Origin: Takakia lepidozioides | Taxonomy: Eukaryota > Plantae > Bryophyta | Length of the DNA: 64,000 nucleotides | NCBI GenBank assembly: GCA_030704615.1 | Contig: CM060731.1 | Span: forward strand, 49,104,001-49,168,000 | Reading direction: 5' to 3' | In this document: positions 33,067 through 64,000 of the stretch, in pieces | Position numbering within the stretch: the first letter of the stretch is position 1 | Layout: each line of letters opens with the position of its first letter | Program-made: the position numbers and the translations under genes | The notes under the pieces: generated by a model | What the model saw: only the letters and a program-made list of their open reading frames with translations | What the model was told of the DNA's origin: nothing | The model's database searches: none

Positions 33067-35522
33067 CACCTTGTGGTTCATGTAATCTCTCTTTTGGAAA
33101 TGGTGACAAATTCTTTTCTTGGTCAACCTGTAATGTAGTCCAATGACTCTTTGTATGTCTTTCCCCATTCAGCATGAATTCTTGGAAACTCGGAACTAAT
33201 TGATGCCGCAACTGATCATCGTTGCACAGAGGTAAATAACCAGACTCAATGCCCAGAATTACAAGCATCACATGTTCAATGGTAATAAGTGAAACCTTGA
33301 ACCAAATATTAATCTGCAATGTTATGTGCTGAAACAATGTTGTTTGTTATGTTTCCCACTGTCAGAATCTCTAGTTATGAAGTTATAGATTGACTTACCA
33401 AGATGTCGATGAGCATTCAATGCATTAGTAGCTAATGAAGCATTTCTTCACAATAGGCTTTCAATTTAGAGGGCCAAGTATCACTATGAGTTTGTGACTC
33501 ACTTTCTCCAACTAAAAAAATACCAAAGAAAAGAAACACCTCAAAACAAGTTAGTAGCTGTGAATATATTTGCTTCTTCATTCATCCAGCAGGATGGTAC
33601 TCTCTCTGTTATTTGTCTGTGGGGGGGTCGTCCCTCACCAGGTGGTGTGCTTGCTTTATGGCCCTGTGGGGTTTTATTTTTCCCCTCATCAGATAAAATA
33701 ATATTGGGGCTTCATCCCCTTCATCAAAAAAAAAAAACTATTGATAGATTAATCAACCTTATTGTATTTGGGGTCTCCATGTAATTAACAGGCGCATGAG
33801 TTAAAAGTAAGGCATTGGAGTAGAATCACATATTTTATTGCCTACACTAGTGTGGACTATCAATATTGAACTCACCTAAAGTGTGAGAGCGAAGGGGAGA
33901 GCTTGCCTGTACCAGCTTGAGCCTTGGAGCACTGCGTACAACAAAGAGGGGCATTTTTAGGGTTTCAAAGGAAATGAAAGGTAGCTGGAGCCCAGAAGGG
34001 CCCATGGGCATTGGGTGTCTATTTTGTAATTTTACTCTTAAGAACATAAATGTTTTCTCTTCTCATGTGCCTAATTCTAAAAAAATTATAGCATGAAGAT
34101 GCCTAATTTGAGAAATTGTTTTCAAATCGTGCCTAATTTTGTGATTGATTGATAATATTAGCGCAAAAATGCCTAAACGGTTGTCCAGGGACGGTATGTC
34201 AGTTCGAACTTGCAAGTAGCATCAGTAGTAATAAGTAGAAGTCCATGATCCATGCAACCAAACACTCCCTGGTAAGCCCATTTCTGACTTTTCCAGATAG
34301 AAAAAATTCCCAAATATTCTAAAGTACATGTGCAGAAAATATTCCAAAGTGAAACGTCAATGTTCTCGGCGTTGCAAAGCACCGTTGATCCATGCGATAA
34401 AAGGGAGAATGTACTGAGTAAAAAGAGGGAAAAAAGAAGAAAACAATGGTGTTCACACTTGAACGTTGACACTTGACACCTATACTACAGATTCATACTT
34501 ACGAGAACCAATTCCCAAATTCAATGCACATGAAGAATATTTTGGCAAATTCCTTGCATGCATGAAAACCAGATATGGCAAATGATCTTTAACAAGCCTG
34601 GTCCCTTTCTTTGAAAAAATAAAAGAGGTCTGCTGGAATCTCTGAGATCTCGCAAGAATCCGCGAGGTCCCGCTAGAATCTCCCGAAATTTTCTTTCATT
34701 CGGGTATGATGTTGATTTCAACGAGCCAACGATCTGGATCAAGATCACCAAGATCGATCTCTTCCCACGAGACAAGCCCTCTTCTTCTCTCGAGAGGATG
34801 TCTGGGGAGGACTATTTAAACACAAAGCAGACAAGTCATAAGCACATTGCAACAGTTCCTGGAGCTTGGTGCTTCTAGTTTTAAGTCACTTGTATCAACC
34901 CTCAATTGCGCTGTAGAGCTTAGATTCTTGCAACGGCCATTGACTCCTGCTGTTACTGATTTGTTCTTCCGTAGTGTACTGGTGATTGGAAAATTGCTCT
35001 GGATGGACGACTTCTTCTCTCCATGACTGTTTTCCGTGGCCTCTGCTTGGTGGTACTGTATCTAGACAGTCCTAATATAAGAGCTCCAGATGCAGCACAG
35101 CTTGCAGTGGAGATGGGTTTTGGGTTCTTGGTTTGATGGGGGTGCTGGCATAGACGTAGTCCAATAGTCCTGGCAATGATCTGATCAGCTACACGACGTT
35201 ATGTTGATTATTTTCCTGCCGGATGGATCAAGGGATGAGGCCTGTTGCTCATGAGCTTAGAATGAATCTGAGCTCTTACTCACCGTCCTGGGTTGTGAGG
35301 GAGGGTCTGGATGCAGGCTGCCAATCGGGTATTTATTTTCTCTCTTTTATTTATGCATTCTAGAGATTTTTCTATTTAAGCGCTACACTGCACTTGCGAA
35401 ATACTACAAGTTTGTTTTAAACCTCATAGTGGTGTTGGAAAACTAGGTGTTATTGAGCTCAATATTATAAAAATGCTGGAAATGAATAATGTCACATATC
35501 CTTTGTGCATACAGCACCACAT

Positions 35523-35944
35523 TGTAACAAGGTAGAATCTAGAAGGTTCTAGATAGAGGATGAAAGTTCCCTAGAAGTTTCCAGAATAACTAGGAAGGAT
35601 CCTAAGAAGTTTGACTTGAGGCTCTCAAGTCAAACTTCTAAGATATTTATATTATGGAGAGTAGGTCAAATCTTTGATAAAGTCATATTGTAGAGAATAC
35701 GTCAAACCTACGAAGGTTGACTTTAGCAAGTATTTTTAATAAAGTCGTATTGTGGAGAATATGTCAAACCTAGGAAGGTTGACTTTAGGAAGCTTTGACT
35801 TGAGGCTCTCAAGTCAAACCTTTAAAATAATCATTTTGTGAAGAGTATATAAACCTGCAATGAAAGCCTAGAAGACATCGAGTTGTTTTGGGAAAAAGTT
35901 GAGAAGTACTTCTATTCTAGTTAGTATAGATCCTGGGTGTTACA
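35523..35944 (+). repeat. Gypsy 5' LTR (422 bp)
   Basis: tgtaacaaggtag...gggtgttaca. About 13 substitutions and one 15-bp indel versus the 3' LTR by manual count. Confidence 0.95.
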
Positions 35945-36024
35945 ATGGTATCAGAGCCTAGTCTTTCTTAAAGTTGGGAGTGAATACCTTCTTTAGGAGG
36001 ATTCGATTAAGATGTTTCTTTTTA

Positions 36025-37055
36025 GCAGAGCCAACTGCAACAAAATTTCCATACCGGGAGTATGTTGGCAGTTGCATTTTGCTGCTCAAGGAACCCGAGT
36101 GGACCTCTCCTACTCTGTAAGTCATGCAGCCAAGTACTCTGAGTCTCCAAAGCTTTCCCATGTTGGTGGTGTCAAACGCATTCTAAAATATTTACGTGGA
36201 TTTCCGGCTTTGCGGATCACATACACTGCACAGTCTGCGTTTCAAAATCAGCTTGTGGCATATCGTGATGCCGATTATGCTGGTGACATGGATGACCGCA
36301 AAAGCAGATCTGGGTATGTTTTAATGCTCAATGGAGGCCCGGTGGCATGGGGCAGCCGCAAACAATCTTGCACAGCTACCAGCACCACTAAAGCCGAGTA
36401 CATAACTGCTCATCTTGCCACCCAGGAACTCATTTGGATGTGCCGCCTCTTGCATGATTTACGCTACACACAAACTAGCCCTACAGTTTTGTACAGCGAC
36501 AATCAAGCCGCAATTCGTTTGGTACGAAATCCAGAGTTCCATAAACGCACCAAACACATTGACGTGAAGTATCGAAAGATCATAGAAGTTGAAAAGAGTG
36601 GCGATATTCTTATCAAGTATGTTTCTACTGCTAACAATGTGGCTCATATCCTCACCAAAGCCCTCCCTCGTGACAAGTTCTGCCGCTTCAAGACTCTACT
36701 CGGTCTCACTTCCACCGTTGTTGCTGATAGTGTTGATAGTTCAACCTCATCCCGAGTGGGAGTGTTGTAAAAATATACCTATAGCGCATATACGGTATGA
36801 GGTTGGCAGTGTACCGACCTATAGTTGGGTAGCTTCTTGGCATAGCAAAGATAACGATGAGCTTAGCTGAGCTCGTGCTGAGAGTTCTGATTACTGTGCT
36901 TAGGTGGTGCAGTGGGTGTGAGAGAAAGTGAGCGATAGCAGTGTACACTTGGATTGTGAAGCTATGTGTATACTTTCACAATCAGTGTTAATACAATCTC
37001 TTTGCTATATCGTTGTGCATAATTCTTGGAGTCAATTCACTGCACTACTTCAACA
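36025..37055 (+). mobile_element. 3' part of Copia: RT C-terminus, RNase H, PPT and 3' LTR (36763-37055)
   Basis: FPYREYVGS, TRVDLSYSVS, YRDADYAGDMDDRKSRSGY, WGSRKQSCTATSTTKAEY, DNQAAI, HKRTKHIDVKY. LTR TGTTG..CAACA is followed by AGAAC. Confidence 0.92.
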
Positions 37056-38119
37056 AGAACCGAGAGTCAACCTATTGGAGGTTGCTATACAGGAAGCCAC
37101 CAGTCACTAAAATGCATGGTGAGTGTCACCTAATATGTGAACAAGTGGAATAAAGGGACCTGATGTGACATCGATATCTGCTCCACCCACGCCGATAGTA
37201 ACAGTTGCCTCTATGAACTTCTCTGCACCCTTCACCACCTTGTCTTTCCCTCTTGCAGCCACTTTGATCTTACCTGCCATACCTGGCCCAACCCCATCAT
37301 AGCAAACAACTACTCATGCTGGCTCTGGCTCTCAAACCACTAGTGAGACACGCTACTAGTGCATGTGCCAGCATGTTGAAGACACAAGTTACAAGCAACT
37401 AGTCAGTTGCTTCTCACCGGACCGACATATTAGTAGAAGTATCTAGAAATTGGAAAGTAACTAGAACTAGAACTATCAGCTAGAACTATCTAGAAAGCCC
37501 ACGCTAGAAAGTCAATCCTGGACTCATTTCATTAATTAATACAGGTGGCCTTCCTACATTGGCCCCCTCTTTTAACTCTTGGACCACAGTATCTCCTGGA
37601 CCACTCTAGAATCAGCGCCGAATGAAACTGCTCTATATATTATCACTGCAACTTTGTGATATTAATTTGAGGGGGTCAAGTGATATACCATATAGCAATC
37701 TCAACGATCTTCCCTTATTCTGCATACCTTGGTGCACTTGATTGAACGTCATGAGCAGGAAATATAGCAAACTTCGGACAACATATTGTTCAAGTAGTAG
37801 TCATCAAGCAGTATGTCGAAAAATCCCTGCAGTATCCTATGAGATGCATTTCTTCAGAACTGCTCTCGTTTAGGATTTTAGCCTCATTATAGCATACATG
37901 ATCTGTGTGCATGATGTGAAGTATGGATATCCGCTAATAACTCTAACGTGTGGACTACATGTGAGTCAAGCTTCTGTCAACTGATACTTAGCCAGAGATC
38001 AGGAAGCTTGATATTACTATTAGCCAAATTATCTGCTAATTAAGTATCTGCAAAACTCGACCTGCAAGCCTTGTATGGAATATCCAGTATGTTGTGCAAA
38101 CTCTGTTTAAGAGACTTTT

Positions 38120-39080
38120 AATACCCACACCTGGGTTGATGGAAAACAGACCACAAGAATTCTCAAGGATGTTGTCCATGTGCCCAACCTTGGCAGAAAC
38201 TTATTCTCTACCTCTGGAGGAGCCCAGAAAGGAATTGATACCCTACATACCAAAGGAGGATGTTGTCTTATGGCTGACGGAGAAGTCGTGATGAATGAAG
38301 TGGAAGAGTATGGAATCTATAGACTGTCAATGACGGTGGTATCATCGTTGGAGTCCTCAGGAAACACCGCATTCTCCGCCAGTATAATTGGTGTACAGAG
38401 CAAAAAGGGCTGCACTCAGAGCTTGGACGTTTGGCACAAAAGACTTGGTCATGTCCATCATGGAATGATCAAGCATATGGAGAATAGAGACATGGTTGAT
38501 GGATTGTTTATTTTAGGGCGAATGGAGGATCAACCCTTTTGCGTGGGTTGTGCTTATGGAAAAAGCCACAGAGAGCCTTTTCCTTGGAATGAACACAAGG
38601 AGAAGATCACAGAGATTGGAGATTTAGTGCATTGTGATCTGTGTGGCCCAATCAATGTGATCAGCATTGGTGGCGCAAGATATTTCGCATTATTTAAGGA
38701 TGATCACAGCGGGTTTAGGGTCATTTTTACATCACACATAAAACAGCCACACTGGATTGTCTACGTCGTTTCTATGGACAAATGCAACGTGAGACAGGCA
38801 TGACCATCAAGATCCTCCGATCAGATAAAGAAACAAAATTTTGCAATGGAAAATTTGAAGAGTTCATGAGCCAGAAAGATATCAAGCATGAGCTCACTTG
38901 TGTTTACTCCCTTTGAGCAGAATGGGGTGGCGGAAAGAGACAACCGTACTATTATTGAGTCTGTGCGCAACATGATACACGCTAGCAATATTCACACATG
39001 GTTTTGGGGGGAGGCTGCGCACACTGCAGTGTATTTGCTCAATCGAACCGGAAGCCGTTTGCTGGACAACGTCACACCAT
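38120..39080 (+). mobile_element. Copia protease end, GAG-pre-integrase and integrase core fragment
   Basis: THTWVDGKQTTRILKDVVHVPNLGRNLFS, WHKRLGH, CVGCAYGK, LVHCDLCGP, TPFEQNGVAERDNRTIIESVR, FWGEAAHTAVYLLNR. Confidence 0.9.
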
Positions 39081-39234
39081 CATGAGTTCAAACGTCCCTT
39101 TTGTATTACCAATAGTCACGTACGGGATGGTTTGGGATTGCACTATTTATATACTGTATTATGATAAGAGAATAGAGATAGTATACATTAATTTTAGAAG
39201 ACAACCATCACGAAAGAAGGAGTAGTGGAGCAAG

Positions 39235-42200
39235 ATGGCGGACAATGAAGAAATTGTGGACAACGCACACACTACTCATCAAGCCAATTATCAGACGGTG
39301 TGGATAATAGAGCGCTTACACGAATTGCAGAATACTCTCGTCACAATTCAACAACAAAACAACGTGTTGATGGAGGAGCTTAAACAAGTGAGACAATCAA
39401 TTGCCCTGGGACTAGTTGTTGATGGGTCGGATACGTTGCTGCAAAAGATGACCAAGACATGCAAGGTCGAGCCGTATAAAGAAAGTCGCGCAATGAGAGT
39501 GCTAGAAGGATGGATTTATCGAATGGAGGTACATCTGTCATATTTTCCTACATCAAATGATTTGAACCACGGAATGTTTATACGATCTTTTCTACTCGAC
39601 AATGCTTCAACATGGTTACAGACATGGGAGAGAAGATAGATTGCAAAATGAGAACTTTTACTATGGAGCACCTTGAAAGTGGGACTGCTCCAATAATTCA
39701 AGGCAGTAGATGTTGTTACAACTGCTCGAATGAAATTATGGAATTTGGAACAACGCGGGAGTGTGCAAAATTACATTGAAGATTTTTTGAATCTTCAGGT
39801 TCAAATCGAAGACATGAGTCCTGCAGAAGTTTTAGACAACTTCAAAAGAGGATTGAAGAAGAAAATTCAATGAGAGGTAATTTTACGCAACCCGGTTGAT
39901 GTCCACGATGCAATTTCATTGGCCCAAAAGATTGAAGGGACGCTACCAAAATACGACGAAGGTATAAACGTTCCATTGAACCAATACGGACCAACGCCTA
40001 TGGAGCTTGGAAATCTTCGAAGACGGGATAACTTCCAATACTCTCAAAGAAATAGGCCGGGAATCAGATATGGAGAAGATAACACACAGCGGTGAATGAA
40101 ATTGAATGACAAGGATGTGACCTCCTCAACATTCTCACGAACAGAAGGACAAAGGGAAAGTCGACAATGTTACAACTGTGGAAAATACGGACATCTTGCA
40201 GCCAACTGCCGAAGTGGAAGGTACAATCGACAAACTTATCAAAAACCTCTTAACAGTTTAAGGAGAGGAGAAGATAACGAACATCACAATGAGCAGGAAA
40301 ACGAGGACAATCAGTAAGTAGACCTCGCGGTCTTACTGGTTCTACAAAGAAGAGGAGAGGAGAGGCGAGGGGCCCTACAAGGAGAAGAGACAAATCAATC
40401 ATGCGGGCAAGAAAGAGACGCAGTTAATTGTGGCAGATGGAACCTTGTAAGGTATTCATGTGAAAGTGTTAATAGACCCTGGGGCAACAGAAAACTTCTT
40501 ATCTAGAAAGACTGCCTTGAAACTAGGACTCCCCTTAGAAAAAGATGAAAGAGAGGAAGTAGAAATGTCAAATGGACATACATAAGCCATTGAGACACTA
40601 CCTAAAAACATAAAGTTGTCGATTGGTAAATATAGAGAAACCTTAGAATGATGAGTGGTCAGACTGGCTCGATATGACGTAATATTAGGCATGTCTTGGA
40701 TGGAATCTCACAACCCTGAGGTTGATTGGCGTAGAAAGATAGTCAAAACCCAGAATTGAAAAATATTGGGAGATCGAGTGAGGACACCATATCGAAACCT
40801 ACCATCATTTGTTATAGGTACTACAGCTATATGTAAGAAAGACTTATTATTTGTAGATTTAATAAGAGACGTGGAAAATCCGAAAAAAGACATGAGTGAG
40901 GTCCCTATAGAATTACAGAGTATATTGAAAGAGTTCAAAGATGTCTTTCTAGATGACCTACCAGCACGACTTCTGCCAAAGATAAGAGTAGATCATAAGA
41001 TTGAGGTTGTTCCAAGTAGTGCTCCTTCTTGTAAAGTCCTTTATTGATTAGCACCAAACGAGTTGGAAGAATGTAAGGCTCAAATCGAGGACCTACTATC
41101 AAAAGGCTTTATAAGACCAAGTGTATCCCCGTATAGAGCGCCGGTGTTGTTTGTGAAGAAAAAAGATAGAGCAATGCGCATGTGCATTGATTATCGAGCA
41201 CTCAACCAGCAGACAGTGAAAAACAAGTACCCGTTACCACGCATGGACGATTTATTTGACCAACTGCGAGGAGCAAAATACTTTACGAAGCTTAATCTGA
41301 GGAGTGGATACAACCAAATTCGAGTCGCTGATGAAGATGTATATAAGACGGCTTTTCGCACTAGGTATGGACATTTTGAATACATGGTTATGCCATTTGG
41401 TCTCACCGATGCCCCAGCCACATTCATGGGCCTCATGAATGATATCTTTCGTCCATTAGATTTGTGATAGTCTTTTTAGATGATATTCTGATCTATAGTA
41501 ACAGCCTTGTCGAGCATACAAACCACCTCAAACAAGTATTACAAGTTCTCCGTGAGAATCAGCTATATGCCAAAGCATCTAAATGTGAGTTTGGAAAACA
41601 AGAAGTAGATTATCTTGGGCATCGCGTGAGTAGGAAGGGAATTGAGGTAATGAGTGAGAAAATAGAAGCTATTCAGCAGTGGATAGCCCCTGAAGACATT
41701 ACCCAATTAAGGAGTTTTCTTGGCCTTACCGGATTCTACAGACGATTTGTACGGAAATTCTCAAAGATTGCCCAACCATTGATAAATCTTTTGGGCAAAG
41801 AAATTAAATAGAAGTGGGGTACAGAAGAGGAGTTAGCATTTCAGGCCTTGAAGGATGCGTTGCTTCATGCCCCGATCTTGAAATGGTATGATCCGACAAG
41901 ACTAATCAAGCTCTCGGTAAATGCGTCAGGCTCAGCAATGGGTGGGATATTACAACAAGAATGGGAAGACGGATGGCACCCAGTGGCATATTTTTCTCGT
42001 AAATTGTTACCCGCGGAAGAAAATTATCATACAACCGAACGAGAAGAATTGGCTATTGTTTTCACTACAAAACATTGGAAGCACTATCTTGGAGACAAAG
42101 AGTTCATAGTGGAGACAGACCATAAACCGTTGGTGTACTTGGAGACACAAAAAGATCTATCGAAGAGACAGATTCGTTGGGCGGAGTGACGACAACAATT

Positions 42201-43755
42201 TAATATGAAGATCGTCTATGTGGAGGGAAAACGACAATTGGCAGATGCAATGACAAGGATGCCACGCATAAACACATTGACAGAAATCAACATTCAACCC
42301 GATTGGTGGAACAAGATAGCGACGATTTCTAAAGATGATGGGGAGATCGTGGACGCTAAAAAGAAGGGCAAAGTGACAGAAGTTCGAGGGTTGGTATTCA
42401 AGGAAGGTAAACTTTGGATCCCTGATGAACCTGCATTGAAGACAGAAGTCTTGTTTGAAGCTCATGATACGGCGATAGCATGACATGTTGGAGTTGAAAA
42501 AACATTCGAACAACTAAAACGAACATTTTAATGGCCGCGGATGCGAGACGAGGTGGAAACGTACGTTCGAAGTTGCATGAGATGTCAACAAAACAAGTCA
42601 ACAAACCGCAAGCCAGTAGGTCTTTTACAACCACTACCAGTACCAAACAGACGTTGGGAACATATGAGCATGGATTTGGTTTGTGAGTTACCTCAAACCT
42701 CATCGGGATACGACATTATAGTGGTCTTTGTAGACAAATTGAGTAAGATGATATATATCCGTCACACTAGAAAATCCGTCACTGCACCTGAACTAGCTCG
42801 ACTATATCTGGAAGCGGTCTATTCTCATCATGGGTTATCTAAAGTTCTCATTACTGACAGGGGTACCCAATTTACTAGCTTGTTTTGGAAAAACTTATTT
42901 GGTCTTTTTAAAACCAAATTAGCTATGTCAACAGCCTATCATCCGGAGTCAGATGGACATACAGAGCAAGTAAATCGTACAATTGAAGACATGTTGCGGG
43001 CCTTTACGTTAGAAGAACAAGAAAAGTGAGATTGGTTATTACCATTGGTAGAATTTTCATACAATAACTCGGTCAACGCGTCAACGAAAGAAACTCATTT
43101 CTTTTTTATGTATGGTGAACACCCAAATGTGCCAACAACTCTTACGAAGTTCAATTTATCAAAAGATGAGTTATCCAAGGTAGCCGCGACTAACGCATTT
43201 GTACAACAAATTCGACGGGGAGTACGTCAAGCTAAAGAGAAGCTGATGATTGCCCAAAATCGCCAAAAGCAGTATGCAAATGCACGTCGACGGGATGAGG
43301 AGTTTGCAGTTGGGGATCAAGTGTGGTTGTCTACAACTAATTTACACATCATTGGATCGCGAAAACTAGGGGCACGGTTCATTGGTTTTTTTTCGATCAT
43401 TAAACGCATTGGAGCAGTAGCATACAAGCTGGAGTTACCACCACATATGAAGATCCACCCGGTGTTTCACGTTTCTCTACTACGTTGTTACGAACCTCGA
43501 CCGTCAATATTCAAAGATAATCAAGAACCACAACCTTTACCAGAGTTGATAGACGGAAATGAAGATTGGGAGGTCGACCGTGTTCTGAAAAAACGCACAT
43601 ACAAACGAGGGCGACATGAGGTGTTGGAGTATTTGGTTTTATGGAAAGGATTTCCATTATATGAAGCTACCTGGGAACCGGTGCAAAATCTTGCAAATGC
43701 TCAATTGATAATTCAAGCTTTTGAAAATTCGAACAACGAGGACGTTGTTTTTTAA
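39235..43755 (+). pseudogene. Gypsy gag-pol (gag, CCHC, PR, RT, RNase H, integrase, chromodomain) with many premature stops
   Basis: CYNCGKYGHLAANC; LIDPGATENF; [10 protein letters not shown]...[12 protein letters not shown]; [11 protein letters not shown]; YFSRKL; CMRCQQNK; TDRGTQFTS; HPVFHVSLL; EDWEVDRVL...EYLVLWKGFPLYEATWEP. Confidence 0.93.
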
Positions 43756-43768
43756 GAGATGGGATGAT

Positions 43769-44205
43769 TGTAACAAGGTAGAATCTAGAAGGTTCTAGAT
43801 AGAGGAGGAAAGTTCCCTAGAAGTTTCCAGAATAACTAGGAAAGATCCTAAGAAGTTTGACTTAAGGAAGTTTGACTTGAGGCTCTCAAGTCAAACTTCT
43901 AAGATATTTATATTATGGAGAGTAGGTCAAATCTTTGATAAAGTCATATTGTAGAGAATATGTCAAACCTATGAAGGTTCACTTTAGCAAGTATTTTTGA
44001 TAAAGTCGTATTGTGGAGAATATGTCAAACCTAGGAAGGTTGACTTTAGGAAGCTTTGACTTGAGGCTCTCAAGTCAAACCTTTAAAATAATCATATTGT
44101 GAAGGGTATATAAACCTGCAATGAAAGCCTAGAAGACATCGAGTTGTTTTGGGAAAAAGTTGATAAGTACTTTTATTCTAGTTTGTGTAGATCATGGGTG
44201 TTACA
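43769..44205 (+). repeat. Gypsy 3' LTR (437 bp)
   Basis: Direct repeat of 35523-35944. Confidence 0.95.
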
Positions 44206-45728
44206 CACACCTCTGATCCTTTCCACCGCTTGCTTCTCTTCTGAGATATCGCTGTAAGTTGAAAACCAACTTCGATTCTGACACATGTGCTGTGAGCAGC
44301 AATTGTCCATGTACCAATGCTGTGAGCAGCTTTGTACATTCCCTGCCCCAATGTCGAGTGGCTCGACAGTTCCAACATTCTGTTGTTTTCTTTTGCTCTG
44401 CTATTTCTTTTTCTGCGTTGTTCACGTTGCTCCAGCGTGAGCGGTGGTTTTCCTGACTGTGAACCACTTTTTCCTTTGAACGATGCTGCATATGCGGTTA
44501 CACTTGCACTTTTGCCATTAGCTCTGCTTTCTTGGTCCCGCATTCTTGATTCTTCTCTGATCAGCCTCCCAGTCATGATACTTATCGTTCGCTCAATTGC
44601 AGGGACATTTTCCCATGATGATTGAAACGATCCATATGCTGCTGGCAGCTGACTTAAAATCTTGGCCATGACTGTGTTGTCAGTGAATATATTATCTCCA
44701 AGATTTGTGAGCTCACATCGCGCCTCCTCGATCTTACCCAAGAAATCTGCAATACTATCATCTTCATCCATGGTAATATCAAAGAAACGCTGTTGAACAT
44801 GGTGAATGCTTTCATGCGAATGCTGATCGTGTACCTCACTCAATTTATCCCAGATCGCCTTGGAGATCTTGCATCCCATGATATATTTGGATACCTTCTC
44901 CTCCACGGCTTGGCACAAAAGAATAACTGTCTGATTATCTTTCTTGATCCATACATCTAAACCCTCGGCATCATTGGAAGGTCTCATTGTGGTGCTATCT
45001 ACTACGTCCATCAGCTCTTTTCCAAGAAAGAGAGCTCGCATCTGAAACTGCCACATATGGAAATTTTGTCCTGAGAACCTCCTAATATTGCCCAGATCTT
45101 GAAGATCAGCCATGCTTGCTACGTTTGACGACAAATGAAACAAAGAAAAGGAACAACTGACGACGTACACTTTGAACTTAAAACCCAAAAGACATAACCC
45201 AAGTGCTACCACTGTTGCAAAGTTACTCACAAGAGCTCTATACTGGGGACAAGAAACCCTGTCTTGTGTACTGCAAGTGCGACGACATGACTTCACTGTA
45301 TTTAAGCTCAACAGCTTAATTGACACAGATACTCTAGACACAATATCTAACGTAACATAAATGAGAGAGAAACTAAAACAATGCAATACCGCTTTTAGAC
45401 CAGTGCACTTATCCCGGAAGAGATTCGTGGGCCCATAACCTGTTGAAGTAGTGCAGTGAATTGACTCCAAGAATTATGCACAACGATATAACAAAGAGAT
45501 TGTATTAACACTGATTGTGAAAGTATACACATAGCTTCACAATCCAAGTGTACACTGCTATCGCTCACTTTCTCTCACACCCACTGCATCACCTAAGCAC
45601 AGTAATCAAAACTCTCAGCACGAGCTAAGCTCATCGTTATCTTTGTTATGCCAAGAAGCTACCCTACTACAGGTCGGCACACTACCAACCTTATACCGTA
45701 TATGCGCTATAGGTATATTTCTACAACA
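44206..45728 (-). mobile_element. 5' part of Copia: 5' LTR (45441-45728), half-tRNA PBS, gag, zinc knuckle, protease
   Basis: The LTR is the reverse complement of 36763-37055 (~10 substitutions, one 5-bp indel). PBS GGTTATGGGCCC. gag from ATG 45113 MADLQDLGNIRRFSGQNFHMWQFQMRALF; CWNCRATRHWGREC; protease WYMDNCCSQHM. Outer flank on the element strand is AGAAC. Confidence 0.92.
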
Positions 45729-49773: not shown

Positions 49774-51954
49774 ATGGTGATTGCCAACGGAACTCAGGTG
49801 AGCGTCAACGGCAATGGCATCAAAGCTGAGCACGAGGCTAATTTGGAGTCTTTTTGCAGAAAGGTCCAGCTTCCTGACCCTCTGAACTGGGGGCGAGCAG
49901 CCTCAGCCCTGCAAGGCAATCATCTGGACGAGGTTAAAAATATGGTGAAAACATTCTACGACGCGACCGAAGTAGCCATTGAAGGGGTGACCTTGACGGT
50001 CGCTCAAGTGGCAGCCGTGGCCCGCCGACCAGAGGTGAGAGTGGTGCTGGATGCTGCCAATGCCAAGAATCGAGTGGATGAAAGCTCCAATTGGGTTCTC
50101 CAAAAGATCATGAACGGTGGGGATATCTATGGCGTCACAACTGGTTTCGGAGCCACCTCTCACCGGCGTACACAGCAAGGAGTGGAGCTCCAGAGAGAGC
50201 TCATTAGATTTCTGAATGCGGGAGTTTTGGGCAAGGGCAACACCCTCCCAGCGTGCACCACGCGGGCAGCCATGCTTGTGCGCACCAACACGTTAATGCA
50301 GGGATTCTCTGGCATTCGTTGGGAGATCTTGGAAGCCATGGAAAAACTTTTGAATGCAAATGTCACACCCAAGTTGCCACTGCGAGGGACCGTCACTGCT
50401 TCTGGAGACCTTGTTCCCTTATCTTACATCGCGGGACTACTTACTGCCAGGCCCAACTCCAGAGCTGTCACTGAGGACGGACAGGAAGTGTCAGCCTTGG
50501 AAGCTCTGAGACTCGCTGGGGTCGAGAAACCCTTTGAATTGCAGCCCAAGGAAGGCCTGGCCATTGTCAATGGAACAGCGGTGGGGTCAGCCTTAGCGTC
50601 CACTGTCTGCTTTGACGCCAATGTGATGGTCTTATTGGCTGAGGTTCTTTCAGCCCTGTTCTGCGAGGTGATGCAAGGAAAGCCTGAGTTTGCTGACCCC
50701 TTAACGCACAAACTGAAGCACCACCCAGGCCAGATGGAAGCGGCTGCTATCATGGAGTGGGTGCTCGATGGAAGCTCATACATGAAGGCAGCAGCAAAAC
50801 TGCATGAAACCGATCCTTTGAAGAAACCCAAGCAGGATCGATATGCGCTACGTACTTCCCCACAATGGCTGGGGCCACAGGTCGAGGCGATTCGCAATGC
50901 CACACATGCCATTCAAAGAGAAATCAACTCTGTCAACGACAACCCAATCATTGATGCTGCCGGGGACAGGGCCCTTCATGGCGGGAATTTCCAGGGAACC
51001 CCCATTGGAGTCTCGATGGACAACATGCGGTTGGCCGTTGCTGCGATTGGGAAGCTCATGTTTGCACAGTTCTCTGAGCTGGTAAACGACTACTACAACA
51101 ATGGGCTTCCTTCAAATTTGAGTGGAGGACCTAACCCAAGTCTGGACTACGGAATGAAGGGCGGGGAGATCGCCATGGCTTCATACCTCTCGGAGTTGAA
51201 CTACTTAGCCAACCCAGTGACCACCCATGTGCAAAGCGCTGAGCAGCACAACCAGGATGTCAACTCACTAGGTTTAGTGTCTGCAAGAAAGACCGAGGAA
51301 TCTATTGAGATTCTGAAGCTTATGAGCTCCACTTTCTTGGTGGGCCTCTGCCAGGCCGTGGACCTTCGCCACATCGAGGAGACAATGCAGACGACAGTGA
51401 AGCAAATTGTTTCCCAGGTCGCCAAGAAGACGCTCTTCACAGGCAGTAACGGCGAACTTTTGCCATCACGGTTTTGCGAGAAGGACCTTCTCAGCCTGGT
51501 GGATCGCCAGCCTGTATTCAGCTACATCGATGATGCCAGCAGTGAAACTTACCCCCTGATGCAGAAACTAAGGGAAGTCTTGGTGAGTCATGCGCTCCAA
51601 AACCCCAAGAATGAAAAATCGGAGACTACATCAGTGTTCCACAGGATCGCAATATTTGAAGAGGAGTTGAAGACGCGCCTGAACATTGCTGTACCTTTGG
51701 TCCGGGAGTCGTACGATAACAAGGGGTATTCGGCAGTGCCAAACCGGATTGAAGACTGCAGGACATACCCTCTCTACAGATTTGTGAGGTCTGAATTAGG
51801 GACCCAGTTGCTGTCAGGCTTGAGGACTGTGTCTCCTGGTCAAGAGATTGAGAAGGTTTACAATGCCATCTCCGAAGGCAAACTTGTGGGTCCTCTTCTC
51901 AAATGCGTTGACGGTTGGACCGGGAGACCCGGCCCTTTTGCCCAGTGCTGTTAA
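49774..51954 (+). CDS. PAL: Phenylalanine ammonia-lyase, intronless, 726 aa
   Basis: [23 protein letters not shown] motif [64 protein letters not shown] has Phe at the substrate switch, indicating Phe specificity. Confidence 0.98.
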
Positions 51955-53289: not shown

Positions 53290-53810
53290 ATGCAAGTTTC
53301 TTATAGCTATTGATCCACATGGAATCACCCCTTCCCGCATCATTGCTCATAGGTCTCCAAAGCCTCCATCTCGCACCCGTGCTGTGCATATCCTGCAATC
53401 ATCGCACTCCACGACACCACATCTCATTCAGCCATACTGTCAAACACTCCTTTTGCATCCTCGATGCACCCACATTTGGCATACATGCAGTCCATCAGGG
53501 CAGTGTTCAGAATGACATCGGGTACAATTCCAGATTTGACGATGTCACCATGGACCTCTTTGCCCTTTCGAGAGCTCCCGGGCTTGCACACGCATTGCAA
53601 ACACAAACAAATGTGATGTGGTTGGGTTTCACCCCTTCGCGCAACATTTGCTCATAGGTCTCCAAAGCATTCATACCACACCCATGCTTGGTAATTCATG
53701 CCAACATTATATTCCACGTGATCAAAGATTGTTGAGACATTATGTTGAACACTTGGTGAGCATGCATGATGCTCCCGCACTTGACATACATGGAGACAAG
53801 GGTGTTGAGT
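53290..53810 (-). pseudogene. PLS-class pentatricopeptide repeat (PPR) gene fragment
   Basis: NTLVSMYVKCGSIMHAHQVF...EGVKPNHITFV; GKEVHGDIVKSGIVPDVILNTALMDCMYAKCGCIEDAKGVFDSM*DVVSWSAMIAGYAQHG. Contains stops and frameshifts. Confidence 0.8.
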
Positions 53811-56124: not shown

Positions 56125-59100
56125 TCAAGACTCATGCTCCTCAACCGTAGCACTAAAGACGATGATGTCATCAATGTAGCACCGGGCGAAGTCTAGCCCT
56201 GCGAGAATCCTATCCATGACCCTCTGAAACTCTGCAGGAGCATTCTTCAACCCAAACGGTAAGAACCGCCATTGGTACAAACAATCCTTCCCATGTTGAT
56301 CAATCCCCCAAAATGTCGTCTTTTGCTTGTCAGCCTCTTTGATTGGCAACTGGTGGTAACCGGATCGCAAGTCCAATGTGCTAATCACCTTTGCATGCCC
56401 AATGGCATCAAAGATCTCCTCTGGAGTTGGCATGGTATATCTATCGGACTTAGTTTGACGGTTCACAGGACGATAGTCCCCACACATCCTTCTTTCTGTC
56501 CAATTGCCATAGACATCCTTCTTAGCTGGCATCACCGTTGCCGAGGCATACTCCCCGCCTGACAACTCCACCAATCCAGCTTCGAACAACTCCATAGTCC
56601 GTGACTGGATCAATGACCTCTCCATGTCACTATACCGGTAGGGCCTTCAAAAGATTGGCGTTTCACTTGCCAAATCAATACGAATCTCCTGACCCTTCAA
56701 ACTCCCCAAATCCTTCAAACCGAAGGCAAAGCAATTTCTATAAGCCCTTAGAAATCGCTGGATCCTCCGTCTCTCTCCTCCGGTGACTGTAGGTCCAACA
56801 TCTGGTTCCCAATTGTCCTCAGTGACTGCAACCTTGGGTACACCAGGCTTAGAGGTAGGAGACAAATCATTTGGTTGCTAGATAGCAACCTCTTGGGCTT
56901 TGTCCGCCCAATCTGACCGTGGCGTAGCCTCCATTTGCTCCGCCATAGCCACCTTGAGAACATCCTCCGCGCAAGAAACATCCTCAACCTCTTCAAAAAC
57001 CTTGGCCACCTTGGCCTCCAACTGATCCTCAGTCCATGGCTCTCCCCACTCCTCATACTGCTGCTTGAGAGATCCAATCACACTTTGCACATCTCATCCC
57101 ACATCTGCCATGGGTGTTTACGACCCACGATCCTGTGCTCGCCCCCACTCACTGCCTCATCTGTCCCGGTTGGCAGGGAGGATGCACTATCCAATGGGAG
57201 TGCAGAAGTAGCCACCAATGCTTGCAATCTCCGTTGCTCAGCCATGCACAAGCCAATGACCCATGTCAAGCAATTTAGATCCATTGCTTGATCCAACACT
57301 TGGCGGCGTGATGCCTCTGATAGAGCTGGCACATCTGTAGTGCCCGTGGTAAAACCCATTGCCCGCTCTCGCTCATCCGCATTGGGCTCTACCAATTGCT
57401 GTAGCACACTATCCCAAATCAATCCAGGACTATTGTCTCGGAAAGCATGAGACGAGGGAAAGCTCATGAGTGTAGGCAAGGCCGCACGTGGCTGCCCCAC
57501 TCGATTGACCACTGTTAGAGGTGGACGATCATCATGTCGCACTCTCTGTGGTTGCCTCCCTTTTTCCAAAATGCTTTCAACCGTGAGATTGGGTGGCCGT
57601 TGAATGGAATCGTATGCTCTCTTGAACAGCTCTGGTGGTGCAAGATTGGTCCACCACAATCGAGGTCGATGCACGCGGGATCCCACCGCTGCTGCATCCA
57701 ATAGCACTGCCGATCCAATCCAAGACCGCACCTGATGCACACTAGCCATAACCCTGGCCTGAGAATCCCCCATAAGAGGAACATTCTCCAAGATATAGCC
57801 TAGAGGTTTCACTTGCCTCGTCTGCAAGTCCCGCAACACTCGCAACATCTCCCAAAACAAATACGATCATGCATCATGCAAGCCATTCCCATGACCTACG
57901 GGAGAGTATCCTTGGCAAGGCCATCCGGCTATCACCAAGTCAATGGCACCATGCCGGTCCAAATCATCTGCCCCCAGCAAGGTAATGTCTGCCGGCAAGG
58001 CCTTTTGATACCCTTGAATTGCTGAGAGAGGCAACAACTCAGGCTATCGGTGTGTGAGCAAGGCAATGTGGCGCATAGAAATACGCCGAGCTATCTCATC
58101 CTTCTCCACATACAAGTACTTGCGTACTTTAATCCCTGCTTGCAATACTCCTGCAAGCCCAGTGCTCATGCCTCCAAACAAGTCTAGCAAACAAATCCCT
58201 GAGTCAGGTGGTTGCCAGGTAATGGGCACTGTGTCCAAAGGAGCTAACTCAGGAGGTCCAGGTGACGTCACTGAATTCCCCTCACTCACCAATGGAAAGG
58301 GCTCCCGCCATGCTTGGTGCACACACTTGCCTGCTACTCGATGCAAATTCCCAACCGTACCCCACAGTGGAATATGCACAGGCCCATGAGGAAGCAAATC
58401 AGCCTTGTATGCCAATTGTTTGTCCTCCATCAGGTGATGGCCTATCATCTGCATGGCTATTGCCCTCCAAGAGCTCACCACCCCAAGCCACCACCCCTGA
58501 GAATGCAGCCAATGTGGGCATCATGTTCCTATGATCCACCGCTACATTCCCAATTAACCGCACTGGGAGCAGTACACGTCGGTCATCTCCTGACTGCCAT
58601 TCCGGCCTATAGGATGTCGTTTCCTCCCAAAAGTCCAAAGTAAAGCCCATGGGGTATAACACAGCCCCACCAACAAGCACATCATAAGACATCGCGTCTG
58701 TAACAATGGCTTTAGCTCTCATGACTGAGCCATCCGTAGGATGATCTGGCTGCAATAGAATGAAGAGCTCATGGCATGTAATCCCTCGTGCCTTATCTGA
58801 ACCACCCAAAGATGTTTGAATTTGGAAAGGGCAAGGTTCCAAATCCGCCTTTGTGAGGCCTAAGCCTGCAATTGCTGCTCATCCCAACATCAATGGTTGT
58901 GCTCCCGAGTCCAACAAGACCCGCAGTGGCCTATATCTCCTCCCGGCTAGGCCACCCAACTGAAACACACCATCCTAATTGTCCACCAGGACTACCCCAT
59001 GAGTCACCATACTGCGCTCAATGGCTGGCCTAGCTAGCAACTCCTGCAACCTTGCAGCTGCCGTTGGCCATGGCGCAGCTGTGGCTGTCTTCACCCTTGA

Positions 59101-59760
59101 ATCCAGGGCATTCATGCATTACATCCCCGCAGATAGTGCCGATGCATCACCACTCTCACAGAGTTCAGCTGCCAGTCTAAACTGCAGCTGGCCGCATCCC
59201 CGGCATTGCAATTGTCGTGGCAGAAAACAATGGAGCTTGGCAAACCGCTGTAGCCGCCCCCAACAATGTACTGGCTGCACCTTGCTTTGTAGCACCACCC
59301 ACTGGCATTTCCTGAGCCACACCAACTCTCCCCACTGGCACTCGTGGCTCTACCTTTGACACGCTTGGGCGAGCGGGTACCATTGATGGCGTAGTTGGAA
59401 CTGTCTCAGCCAATGTGAAAGACTGTGGAAGCCTTGTCTGTTGACTTGCTTCCCCTCTTTGTGGATCAAAATCCACATCTGCGCCTCTTGGCTCAGGTTC
59501 ACGTGTTGCTGGAGCTGGCGCCACATTAGTAGTGGCCATGGCAGCAAGATGTTGCTCTAGCTGGGCAAGCCTATCCACCATGCCTTGGTCATGACCTTGA
59601 CCTTGACCATGTGCTCCTTGGTTTTGGTTACGACCTCCATCGCGACCATTGCCTCATCTACCTCTCTGGACTACATTGTCTCGTCCTCGGCCACCATTGT
59701 TCCCTTTGCTAAAGGACTCCACCATATAGACCTCACCCACTCTCCATCTCAAGTACTAGA
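56125..59760 (-). mobile_element. Truncated Ty3/Gypsy retrotransposon: gag-like region, aspartic protease, C5 DNA methyltransferase, reverse transcriptase
   Basis: Protease RVLLDSGAQPLMLG (DSGA 58900-58911). MTase domain ~57260-58200. RT RRMCGDYRPVN...LDLRSGYHQ...LPFGLKNAPAEFQRVMD...CYIDDIIVFS (56125-56625). Truncated after YIDD; no LTR pair seen. Confidence 0.9.
57260..58200 (-). pseudogene. Retrotransposon-borne DNMT3-like cytosine-5 DNA methyltransferase domain (two in-frame stops)
   Basis: One frame contains motif I LLDLFGG (58170-58190), II YLYVEKD, IV DLVIAGWPCQG (PCQ 57912-57920), VI YILENV (57780-57788), VIII HRPRLWWTN, IX ERERAMGFTTGTT and X RRQVLDQAMD. Stops at 58044-58046 and 57867-57869. 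Confidence 0.9.
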
Positions 59761-61199
59761 GCTATAGTGGCGAGAGAGGCCTCAGGAAGCTCGACTAGAA
59801 GAAGACGAGCCTGCCTACGTCTCACGTAGAGATAACCTCTCCACGTCCCAAGTGAGGTTCACCACCTGACTTGGCACATGGAACCAAATGAAGTCTCAAT
59901 GCCAACAAAATACAAATATAAATGTATAATGTCCTAATTAACTAGAAATAACTATTTCTAACTAATCACAAACAAAACCATGACACCTATCGTGCACATA
60001 CATATCGTTACACAACTACATCATTGTCCAATCCACACAACACATACAAAACACATACATAAAACACTATTTTAACTAATTTTGGACTTTTGTTTGGTCT
60101 AGAAATAATATGAGAAATATGAATAAACAAAATTTATTATTGAAATAAAGCGATTTATATGATTATTTGGCTATTTTATGCACAATATAACCATGAACAA
60201 TAATCCTCCAAACATTTTTTGGAGACAATATAAGTATATATTGTGGTTTTAAAAGAACGTCCACTGCCAAGTTGCCATTCATGAAAAAAATGGGAGGATG
60301 CAATAAATTACACCATGATGTGAGGTCAGATATGTAAAACTTTTTGCACAAAATGGTTGCCATATCAGATGACATACAAAACCAAACATAGAACAATCAT
60401 GGCATGTGATGAAGAGGATGACATGAAAGAATGAGTCCGCATACATTGATGATAAACATTCATATTTTATTAGAGATTGCAACTTGGCGTTGATGTCAGA
60501 CATAATGTAACGTCAACTGTACATCCGTTCACATCCGCTAGACTTAATGTTATCCATCGGCTCGAAGCCATACAACGGCTTACAGTAACCCATTAATATT
60601 ATAGAGCCTCCTCCCAAACGGCTCGCAATCAAGGCATGTGTTCGAAGACGCCTCCGGTTACCACAACCACTTGCAACGGTCTCCGCACCAGAGAAAACGG
60701 AAATACTTTCAGAGAACTCGAACCTAGTAGTAATATTATCATCCGAAATGTTACTTGGAACTCTACTTGTTGAATCTCTTGATGCCCTTGAAGCCTGCCG
60801 GAAAGCCCGCCATTCTTGCCAATCACGAAGTTCTTCTTTTTCTTTTCGAATTCGCTCCTTGAATATGACTGGGCAAAAAAAATTTCAAGTGACAAATGTC
60901 AGCTGAAATGTGGAAGATTTGTAGAAAAAATGATAAGGTAAAAGTGCAAGTGGAACACACTTTCAAGATCAAATTCTCCATAAACAACAAACAGTGGGAT
61001 AAGTACATACCAAGGTAATCAGGTTCCTTTTGTTGTGGGATCCAAACACGAGGATCAACATATTTTCCATACCAAGCCCAATAGGCGTGGTCGCGACCAA
61101 TAGGCTCAAGAGAAAACTTGGCAGGGTTCTTGCTGATGTAATCTACGACTGTTGAAGCTGCAGCCATTTTCAATATATATGGCCACACAACTTTTGTCA

Positions 61200-61720
61200 T
61201 ATCATCCTGGTCAACCAAGCCTTTTGGTGATGGCTTGTATGAAATAAGGAAAATCCAGTATTTGGTGGGTTTTGGAGGCCCTTTGATGGCTCATCATCGA
61301 CAAGGAGTATTTGTCCCTGCATTGCAAAGGGTGTACCAGGGTACTAGGCAAGAACAGTGCGAATATCCTTAACGAGATAGTTCATGTCAGGCATGATGTA
61401 ACTGGTAGTGTCTTTGCAATCCTCAGCTGACCAGATGAAGCAAAACTTTTTCAAAATTTTCGTGGGAACTAAGCACTTGAGCATCCTACAAAGAACATCT
61501 CTTTCAGCACATGACCCAATCGCCACGTGAAAATGCATCAACGCAAGGTTGAGAAACTCCAAGATTTCGGGCCGGGGAACCACAAAAGGTCTGTCGGGAA
61601 CATGAACTGTAACTTTCCTGAAACGAAATCTCTCCTTAAACAATTCACCGCCGGTTGGAGGTGGCCGGTAGTAGAGGAGTCCGTTGACACTCAATATTAA
61701 CAACATCCGTTTCCTCTTCC
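61200..61720 (-). pseudogene. FCP1/NIF-like (HAD-fold) domain gene fragment
   Basis: LLILSVNGLL...RPEILEFLNLALMHFHVAIGS...VKDIRTV, then QILLVDDEPSKGLQNPPNT. The catalytic DxDxT motif is absent. Confidence 0.6.
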
Positions 61721-63299
61721 CCGATGTGGCAGATGAAGGTTGATGGACGATGCCATCCTGCGCAATTTAAGAAAATAAATTTCAGTGTTCCCACCGTCAG
61801 AAACAACCCGATGTAGTGTTTATTAGAGTGACCTCTACGTTTGCAGAGACATAAGTGTCCTGACAATGGACTATTGTAAAGGACCAAGAGTAGACGATAT
61901 ATCGAACAGTTGGAGATCATGAAAAGATGAACACCGGCTGTCAAGTGAAGGTTCGTGGACGCACCTTGTCAGGAGGCGTATTCAAGAAGTTCTGCGGCTC
62001 CATACTCGCTTGTATAAAAATTACGGAGTTAGTTTGGGACCGCAAAACAAACTGCAAACGAAAGTGGAGAAATGGTTTTGAAATTTACCATTGAAGGTCT
62101 CGCAGAGAAACAGTGTCCGATTCCTGTGGGCTTGGATTGACGAGGCGCCACAACATCCGAGGGAGTCCTCATGTGTTTGGAGTCCGCTCTTTTTTTCTTG
62201 TCAGCCTTTTGCCCGTTGGAAAGATTTCCTGCAGAGGAAGGAAATGGCTCGGGGGCTCTTTTTCGCCTCTTTGGTGCAGAACATTGTGCCACCAGTTCAG
62301 GGTCAGGCTGTGTCGATGTTGGAGATGTTTTGTTATTGAACGACGGGGGGAGTGGAGGGGCAATAACAGGCAAGCACAGAAAATTGTCCCTTGAGCACTC
62401 GACATCCTGGATGGAATGAAAACGCAACGAAGGAATATTTTACCTCGGAACTGCATTCCAATATAGACGTCGTTTGACAGGAAGGTCATGATCTGCAGAT
62501 TTTCTGACTTGGAGCAACAGATGAATATCAGACCCCAAACTAAGTGAAACTAGGAGAATGGGCAAGGAGCGAGAAATGCGTTTAAGTCACCTGACTCCTG
62601 CGGATTTGGGTTGTCCAACCCTCGTGCTGGGGAGATATGCGAAGAAGAGACGGAACAAGGTGCAGCGGAGCCGCAGCCACCCTGACGGTTGCCCTACAGG
62701 TCGAATAGACCAGACCCTGCGTACTGAACAGGGAGGGTGAGGAATGTTGGGAAAGGTCGATAAAGTTTCCGGGATAATTCTGTTCTTCACCTATACCTTG
62801 GACTTTACACCCAGGAGAACCCGAGAGGAGAAGAGTGTCGCCCGCTTCCCAAGAGGAGAAGGGTCTGACCGAGGATCCACCGAGGATCCACCGAGGACCA
62901 ATTTGAGCACCATCGTGAACCCTCAGAAAGCCTTCAATACTACAACTCACTGCTAATCCGGAGGGTTCCCTTAGGGGACTTGAGGAACCGTTGACATCGT
63001 CAGCATCTCCTTGAACCTGCCAAAGAGACCTAATCATAAATCCGGGAGTGCAGGAATATGAACCTCTACTGAACAGTGGAGGTCACTAGATATAGTCATG
63101 TCCCCGTATGAAGGCCTATATCAGAGTCTTGGGACTGCCCGGAATGTGCGTCAAGAATTCAACAGAAAATGAGTGAAAATGAGAGTATTATATCTAATAC
63201 GTGTGTGATTACAAAGCAATGAAAATCAGAAACCATGAAGATATTCAATAGCTCGAGTGAGATGGGATTGATCAAAAATAATTTTATTTCGAAGCATCG

Positions 63300-64000
63300 T
63301 ATCATTCCAGACCGTAGAGACTGATGGTTGCTATCTTCTCAAGGTTCTTCAGACCTATTTGCTTGGAATGAGGAAACATCCCACTGTTTCAAGCTATCTT
63401 AGGAAAAAAAAGATAGGGTTGAGTTTTTTTCCCAATGTTTCAAACGATCCCAAGTTTAGCCCACTCTGGGATTTTATTGAGGACAACGGTTTTAAGAGTC
63501 AACAAGACATGAGTCGCGCGGGTTCGATACACACTTCATGGCGGTGTCGCCAATGAGCAGAGTGTTACTCTTGGTGTATTGTTAAGATAAAGCTTGAGCT
63601 CTTCCAGTAAAAACTTATCTCTGTCAGGGTCCACGAGCGCTTTATATTTTGGAAGGAAGATGGTATGTCCTAACGGGTTCAAGTATGATTTGTACATATT
63701 GTCTACAGTGTCGATGAGGAGAGTATTGGATTTGTAAGCTGTCGGGTTTTCCTCAGCGAAAATATCGTAAAGACGTTTAAAGTAGATGGGATTTTTGGGA
63801 GCTTTAGGCCATTTTTCGTTGAATGCATGACGGAATTGTCACTGCTGTAAGTTTTGACTTGGGAATAGTACTTACCGAACACGGCCTTGGCGATAGTCTC
63901 GACGTTCATTTCAGGTCCCGTGTTCCAAAAACAAACAACAATTTTTTTGATGGTCCACTTAATGAATTTGTCAAGACCGTTTCGCATAGCTAACTTGAAT
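63300..64000 (-). pseudogene. Second FCP1/NIF-like domain fragment (runs off the window end)
   Basis: MRNGLDKFIKWTIKKIVVCFWNTG and, downstream in another frame, NTLLIGDTAMKCVSNP. Confidence 0.5.

Follow-up and report, generated by a model that had tools for sequence, protein, structure and literature searches.

A decayed DNMT3-bearing Ty3/Gypsy copy in the moss Takakia lepidozioides and its bryophyte family, with a conserved and probably leaky stop behind the methyltransferase

Among described retrotransposons, the closest to the element treated here is KnitGypsy-Dnmt3 of Klebsormidium nitens, a kind that the accessible part of its report places in K. nitens only (de Mendoza et al., 2018; PMC5890265). 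Why retrotransposons carry a silencing enzyme has been an open question since 2018, posed in algae with few genetic tools. A land-plant relative lies in the moss Takakia lepidozioides (assembly GCA_030704615.1, contig CM060731.1, positions 49,104,001 to 49,168,000), within a stretch of 64,000 nucleotides that is called the window throughout. On its minus strand, three-frame translation recovers a gag remnant, a protease, a DNMT3-type DNA methyltransferase (DNMT) and a truncated reverse transcriptase (RT). Like KnitGypsy-Dnmt3, the family to which this copy belongs joins Ty3/Gypsy domains to a non-permuted, intronless Dnmt3 domain with signs of purifying selection (PMC5890265).

SymbioDIRS-Dnmt3 and the EpiLTRs share a retrotransposon-borne cytosine methyltransferase with this family but represent other element classes in other hosts (PMC5890265; bioRxiv 10.64898/2026.05.21.726589). 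The SymbioDIRS-Dnmt3 enzyme methylates CG de novo in yeast (PMC5890265), and the EpiLTR DNMTs are DNMT4-related and independent (bioRxiv 10.64898/2026.05.21.726589). Two papers cite the Klebsormidium kind under 'streptophytes', with bryophytes unnamed in their available text, and their supplementary trees may include moss or liverwort members (PMC12344493; bioRxiv 10.64898/2026.05.21.726589). An opinion paper holds methylase-encoding transposons to be absent from land plants 'such as tracheophytes' (PMC6338049), a claimed absence to which bryophytes are an exception. In the portions available, the supplementary files of PMC5890265 make no mention of Marchantia, Sphagnum, KnitGypsy or split direct repeats, and PMC6317226, PMC11982613, PMC9516144, PMC5784723, PMC10714607, PMC11244446, PMC6338049, PMC8557442 and bioRxiv 10.1101/363937 give no account of the land-plant family, of the stop described below or of a DNMT3-type chlorophyte group; subscription papers, including the Marchantia genome paper, are thinly covered by this survey, and absence from print is not established. 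A first-pass annotation of the window had taken the kind as known from Klebsormidium and as unrecognised in embryophytes. It is indeed already known in Klebsormidium, and bryophyte members are found here.

The Takakia copy and its family

A C-terminal gag remnant at 59153-59590 (tblastn, 34% with P0005 and 38% with P0167) is followed by an aspartic protease region at 58438-59181 (tblastn, 46-51% to relatives) with the motif LLDSGA at 58917-58900. The protease is weak in Pfam (Asp_protease_2, E 0.02) and is 48-55% identical to the protease region of its ten closest relatives. The gag core and CCHC zinc knuckles are without a match in the window to GAG and ZF queries, which corrects the first-pass reading of the gag-like region.

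The methyltransferase and its linkers occupy 57096-58433, with a core at about 58205-57231, and are 59-62% identical to bryophyte relatives (tblastn). C5 motifs I, II, IV (PC), VI (ENV), VIII, IX and X are in linear order: LLDLFGG lies at 58190-58170, YVEKD at 58112-58098, IAGWPCQG at 57932-57909, ENV at 57788-57780, HRPRLWWTN at 57671-57645, ERERAMGF at 57374-57351 and RRQVLDQAMD at 57308-57279. Motif X is substituted at a column that relatives conserve. All motifs quoted in the first-pass annotation are present in its order, and stops at 58046 and 57869 enclose motif IV, as read there. With X written at stops, the region matches PF00145 at E 1.7e-11, well outside what chance would give. By sequence, DNMT3A is the best match in the Protein Data Bank (PDB; 5.7e-13), followed by DNMT3C/B and, at a wide distance, by DRM2 and bacterial enzymes; the family profile gives DNMT3A at 7.6e-20, tobacco and Arabidopsis DRM-type enzymes at 3e-10 to 7e-8 and M.HhaI at 4e-5. 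A Foldseek search with an AlphaFold model of middling quality (mean pLDDT 61), which served the fold search only, also places DNMT3A/B on top (best 6.8e-14). By these comparisons the domain is nearer DNMT3 than DRM, DNMT2 or bacterial enzymes, as first proposed. Pfam finds no further domain in the DNMT region and no DUF3444 downstream, and the domain is without introns relative to its relatives, inside a retroelement open reading frame (ORF). The N-terminal part of a Ty3/Gypsy RT follows at 56131-56871 (RVT_1, E 1.5e-19, bearing out the earlier assignment), with YIDD at 56178-56167.

The copy is much decayed. Stops interrupt the protease region (58977, 58881), the DNMT (58046, 57869) and the RT (56649), and the frame changes near 59180, 58430 and 57090, which leaves the gag remnant, protease and DNMT in differing frames and the RT back in the protease frame. 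The element is cut at 56131, just after YIDD, and holds no RNase H or integrase. Upstream it reaches to about 60057, past the 59760 that had been given as its limit in an extent of 56125-59760. In run X1, 24 contigs have a loose end at 56131 and 27 have one at 60046. The window copy is dead, internally deleted and 3'-truncated, an ordinary relic of its family.

By sequence comparison that family belongs to Ty3/Gypsy, is multi-copy and has members in peat moss, Marchantia, Calypogeia and Riccia too. DNMT protein searches return 33 longer and 169 near-length proteins, with Marchantia polymorpha, M. paleacea, Calypogeia, Riccia and Sphagnum among the named relatives. A Marchantia cluster at 90% identity has 18 members, of which five of the 15 listed are 1278-1281 aa long and lie on chromosomes 4, 5 and V (gene models alone). 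The Takakia element is covered by many diverged contigs in four runs from four studies, and run X1 contributes 23,189 contigs across 8 kb. Summed depth is not a copy number, but this cover shows a multi-copy family in this moss.

A metagenome scan adds 80 loci. Gag, knuckle or protease lies upstream of the DNMT in 51 of the 56 loci that have over 1 kb of sequence on that side, and RT, RNase H or integrase lies downstream in 40 of the 44 that have over 1.5 kb there; 19 of the 80 carry all six domains. The integrase is of the rve/H2C2 DDE type, a PHD finger stands at its end in all three loci scanned, and the order gag, protease (PR), RT, RNase H (RH), integrase (INT) is kept. The family order is an ORF1 of gag-PR-DNMT and, behind a stop, RT-RH-INT-PHD. 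A land-plant Gypsy family with a DNMT between protease and RT, as first proposed, is thus multi-copy, although this copy of it is dead; the order holds, but the DNMT ends ORF1 ahead of a conserved stop and is not an inner part of Pol. Most of the 80 loci represent one subfamily, whose DNMT-RT linker is nearly identical to that of the Sphagnum fallax protein P0021. Because the assemblies are few and loci recur, the 80 count as about three lineages (the main one, L004/L067-69 and L041) besides the window. Locus L004 has one extra stop between protease and DNMT and is not fully open. Viral contigs gave three pattern matches, none related to the family.

A profile search of 1.84 billion representatives returns 434 proteins at E 1e-30 or better. 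The best 150 of these 434 show two architectures, PR-DNMT(-RT) and RT-RH-DNMT-INT-PHD, which split in DNMT trees (152 and 52 rows) and in an RT tree (52 rows) with support of 96-99. The window DNMT and RT nest with bryophyte elements (support 99-100). Among 20 representatives, the named ones are Closterium (two) and Klebsormidium nitens (one) on the window's side and Scenedesmus (one) on the other. By these trees the family extends to Closterium and Klebsormidium, and also to the chlorophyte Scenedesmus, where the DNMT is placed between RNase H and integrase; one ancient DNMT capture with later relocation is the likely history. The RT-RH-DNMT-INT-PHD group consists of Gypsy polyproteins, P0029, P0365 and about 80 more, and its sole named host is Scenedesmus sp. 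PABB004.

The stop behind the methyltransferase

In the window, the DNMT region is followed by a stop with its context at 56872-56880: TAG at 56880-56878, then CAA CCA, an exact CAR-YYA. A stop stands at the matching place in all 34 in-frame DNMT-RT linkers among 47 scored, the other 13 being frameshifted and two more having been skipped for insertions. A motif search places the stop in 52 loci besides the window, and in 51 of these 53 cases its context departs from CARYYA by at most one base (five exact); the other two are tandem stops. Decay stops inside domains behave differently, with none of 863 in an exact CARYYA context and 20 within one mismatch. The reading of the TAG at 56880 as a decay stop was considered and rejected. 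Contigs of four runs list no variant at 56870-56889, and the neighbouring positions vary (40 of 58 rows). Stop and context also hold in four lineages whose silent sites are near saturation.

Protein records show a similar boundary. Full-length ORF1-type proteins of Marchantia, Calypogeia and others end 92-98 aa past motif X; those of Marchantia and Calypogeia do so at 94-98 aa, like the peat-moss type. A Klebsormidium protein marked partial and its sister end alike, shortly past the DNMT, and a Closterium protein likewise ends soon past it (protein records alone in both genera).

UAG-CAR-YYA is the type I readthrough motif, which works on UAA too (PMC3542737). The window, L004, L067 and L068 combine an exact CARYYA with no nearby downstream ATG. 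Readthrough is the best reading of the stop because the window and L004 lineages have the exact motif and no Met soon after the stop. Judged from these alignments, the stop after the DNMT is probably read through, in a minority of translations.

The domain ahead of the stop is itself conserved. All 152 domains compared, which were selected by similarity, retain the catalytic Cys and the ENV Glu. Against five relatives, identity is 63-68% for the DNMT, 48-59% for the protease and 68-80% for the RT. For the DNMT, the window compared with L004, L001, L017 and L005 gives pN 0.21-0.26 and pS 0.72-0.75; these measures are quoted because decay obscures dN/dS in comparisons of close copies, and dS is in many cases saturated in comparisons across lineages. 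The pattern indicates that the domain is under purifying selection between lineages. Among close copies, dN/dS is 0.47-0.75 for the DNMT and 0.36-0.68 for the RT, and these high ratios, alike in the RT, fit decay after insertion.

Proposed mechanism and its rivals

The place of the stop past the DNMT leads to the prediction that enzyme and Gag are equally abundant and that the particle carries the enzyme along. With a leaky ORF1 stop, most products would be gag-PR-DNMT, and RT to integrase would arise by readthrough alone. Each Gag would then come with one DNMT, giving the enzyme in bulk alongside the particle shell, and the ORF1 product would be packaged; the element's protease is proposed to cleave the DNMT free. 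The enzyme could methylate cDNA newly made in or near the particle, and copies would thus insert already methylated. The parts of this scheme differ in strength. Catalytic activity on DNA is probable. Whether the element's own cDNA is the main substrate is an evenly balanced call, cDNA being favoured because the DNMT is tied to Gag and not to the integrase and is without DUF3444. As a whole, the reading of a dead copy from a family with an ORF1 of gag-PR-DNMT3, a leaky stop and a Gag-level packaged enzyme likely methylating its own cDNA is somewhat favoured.

A broader account can be put forward only tentatively. It would make this an ancient green-plant integrase lineage with split repeats that has kept a working DNMT3 since before land plants. 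In bryophytes the lineage would deliver a capsid-level enzyme through the leaky stop and insert premethylated cDNA, which would make it a multi-copy source of de novo methylation that has gone unrecognised in Marchantia and mosses, and it would replicate through a palindromic junction of its terminal repeats, unlike standard LTR elements.

Several observations weigh against the favoured reading. The window copy itself can make nothing. The 80 loci, mostly one subfamily from few assemblies with the same loci repeated, are not independent, and the 152 domains with intact catalytic residues are a selected sample. The commonest stop context, CAA CCC (45 of 53), misses CARYYA at its last base. The stop is not universal, because P0026, P0446 and P0455 run from DNMT into RT without one, and folding reveals no conserved RNA structure 3' of it (z -0.1 to -1.4). 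The DNMT and RT trees are unrooted and hold no host DNMT3. Depletion of CpG and CWG does not single out the element (CpG is 0.58 in the DNMT and 0.60 in a host phenylalanine ammonia-lyase (PAL) gene nearby), and as CpG depletion is alike in the two it supports neither side on methylation.

The rival that survives best, possible though unlikely, accepts the bulk enzyme but gives it, in place of particle cDNA, a main target in the chromosomes (insertion sites, sister copies or host genes) or in RNA. These options are listed in the Discussion of PMC5890265, Gag-level output would far exceed the need of one cDNA, and the PHD finger on the integrase suggests a family that reads chromatin. Yet the DNMT does not sit beside the integrase here, unlike in the RT-RH-DNMT-INT-PHD group, and it has neither the DUF3444 that host plant DNMT3s carry (PMC6453930) nor any other Pfam domain.

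A second rival keeps the family and the stop but has RT-RH-INT made by reinitiation, by splicing or from a second transcript. The peat-moss-type subfamily has an in-frame ATG two codons past the stop, so reinitiation is possible there, and 16 of the 53 junction stops are TAA; both points also count against readthrough. The window, L004, L067 and L068, however, keep an exact CARYYA without such an ATG, and lineages whose silent sites are near saturation still preserve the reading frame through the stop. RT must reach the particle and the protease, and a fusion protein achieves both. Reinitiation and its like are accordingly judged quite unlikely, and readthrough is preferred.

An idle passenger domain without catalysis, or one that serves as a scaffold for DNA binding, is improbable. 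The Klebsormidium enzyme shows no de novo methylation in yeast, a result that its authors call inconclusive (PMC5890265) and that counts against an active enzyme here, and the DNMT ratios among close copies are high; but those ratios are high in the RT too, as decay after insertion would have it, and the intact catalytic residues and strong purifying selection between lineages speak for activity.

Finally, a host DNMT3 fragment fallen by chance into a Gypsy relic, or algal contamination or misassembly, is barely credible. In its favour, among the contigs listed none spans the element's junctions with its flanks, and the trees held no host DNMT3. Against it, other copies link the domains in the same order, at dozens of loci as well as in named proteins of liverworts and mosses; the DNMT groups with retroelement DNMTs in those trees; contigs from four runs, in four separate studies, extend over the element; its DNMT and RT lie within bryophyte elements; and the adjacent PAL is moss-type. 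None of the three refuting conditions set out in the first-pass annotation is borne out.

Termini, surroundings and described systems

The relatives' elements carry split direct repeats in the layout A1...B1-A2-B2, with A of about 340 bp and B of about 115 bp, a structure seen when 30 of the 80 loci were compared with themselves and the repeats were mapped across the full set. The repeats are complete in L034, L048/L062 and L058 and partial in L001, L011, L065 and L072. The paired LTRs first expected are not borne out, since self-comparison of the window yields no LTR pair flanking the element and relatives have split repeats instead. Elements begin with TG and end with CA, and a 4-bp target duplication is exact in six of the seven distinct loci with both ends, the remaining one having a mismatch. 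These ends and duplications indicate integration by the DDE integrase, despite the DIRS-like layout. LTR finders likely miss the family because of its split direct repeats with a DDE integrase.

In the window, a weak match to the junction of repeats B and A lies at 60057-59979 (74% over 85 bp, E 0.001; blastn with the L048 B1/A2 junction as query). It comprises a 3' remnant of terminal repeat B at 59988-60057 (minus strand), which ends just before the junction, and at 59979-59987 (minus strand) a two-base spacer with the TG start of repeat A, whose far end is undefined here. The layout is that of the B1/A2 junctions of L001, L011, L034, L048, L058, L062, L065 and L072. Because the window keeps this weak junction alone, split repeats are suggested for this moss. 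In relatives, the B1/A2 junction may act as a template or substrate that regenerates both termini.

Further features of the termini were noted. The B1/A2 junction is near-palindromic (..GACA, two bases, TGTC..), like joined ends, at L001 14788-14804, L058 10343-10359 and similar sites. With regard to a tRNA primer-binding site and a polypurine tract, no TGG follows A1, and a G-rich tract precedes B1 (four loci, by eye). Loci L020, L024 and L033 hold A...B alone, still flanked by a 4-bp duplication, either through recombination between B1 and B2 or through assembly collapse. L020 and L065 share a flank yet differ in repeat layout.

The PAL gene, intronless, lies 4 kb from the element at 49774-51954 (+). 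It is 86-88% identical to Sphagnum, 79-85% to closer paralogues of other mosses and 70-75% to liverworts and a hornwort. In a quick tree of 41 rows (40 chosen from 120 listed matches), all named members of the group that contains it are mosses (support 98). Within that group it stands apart from the sub-branches of Sphagnum and of Bryopsida, which indicates a moss belonging neither to Sphagnum nor to the Bryopsida sampled.

Other repeats surround the element. A conventional chromodomain Gypsy at 35521-44205 (+) has an LTR pair (35521-35944 and 43767-44205, 94% alike, TG start), RT-RH-INT at about 40900-43330 and SH3 and chromodomain at 43030-43752, with no DNMT match. Copia-type pieces lie within 35997-38803 and 44178-45728 (gag_pre-integrase at 38111-38800 (+), copia gag at 44181-45473 (-)); together with a 293-bp inverted repeat (36763-37055 and 45441-45728) they form nested insertions. 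Another repeat family apparently lies directly upstream of the element, since many diverged contigs cover 60141-62000. Broken ORFs occupy 60826-61766 and 63536-63838 (-), one with a weak NIF/FCP1-type phosphatase match (E 0.0015). A 3.6-kb segment is duplicated at about 90% identity (9175-12762 and 19780-25523), its second copy broken by a glutamine-rich coding stretch running to about 29800. Degenerate tandem repeats with plant-telomere-like CCCTAAA units fill 2984-4541, and 53300-53800 (-) holds what we take, by eye, to be decayed PPR-like repeats.

The family combines a DDE integrase, TG...CA ends and 4-bp target duplications, whereas DIRS, PAT and Ngaro elements use a tyrosine recombinase. 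Its layout of A1...B1 A2 B2 is nonetheless that of the split direct repeats in those elements (PMC8557442). SIRE1 is a retroelement that uses type I readthrough, and the family differs from such readthrough systems in that its stop lies past protease and DNMT, not past gag, and its commonest context ends in C. With type I readthrough in tobamoviruses it shares an in-frame UAG, a following CAA CCA or CAA CTA and a polymerase downstream (PMC3542737).

Host plant DNMT3 genes (PpDNMT3a/b; Yaari et al., 2019; PMC6453930) have a linear DNMT3-type domain as in the window. They bear a C-terminal DUF3444 (PMC6453930), whereas the window DNMT is without it and has many diverged copies. Five DNA methyltransferases have been counted in Marchantia (Schmid et al., 2018; PMC5784723). 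Element-borne DNMTs would add to those five and, annotated as host genes, can confuse inventories. Because M. polymorpha holds many near-identical, apparently uninterrupted family ORFs, the question of why retrotransposons carry such an enzyme becomes testable in a model plant.

The nearest comparison remains KnitGypsy-Dnmt3. Its DIRS-type repeats (legend to Fig. 4c, PMC5890265) match A1, A2 and the two B repeats of the relatives, and the K. nitens protein GAQ93235.1 (P0371, zf-CCHC-PR-DNMT), which is unmatched to the copies in that paper, falls on the window's side of the unrooted DNMT tree (support 97-99). In KnitGypsy-Dnmt3 the DNMT shares one ORF with RT and RNase H (PMC5890265), whereas in the window family the frame is the same and a conserved stop stands between. 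Its authors propose acquisition in the K. nitens lineage (PMC5890265), but relatives are found here in Closterium, liverworts, mosses and, with the DNMT in another position, Scenedesmus. The bryophyte group, with a moss as host of the window copy, is a separate and well-supported branch. A Dnmt3-bearing Gypsy kind was thus already known from Klebsormidium, to which the present comparison adds the conserved ORF1 stop, the split repeats with 4-bp duplications and a wider breadth.

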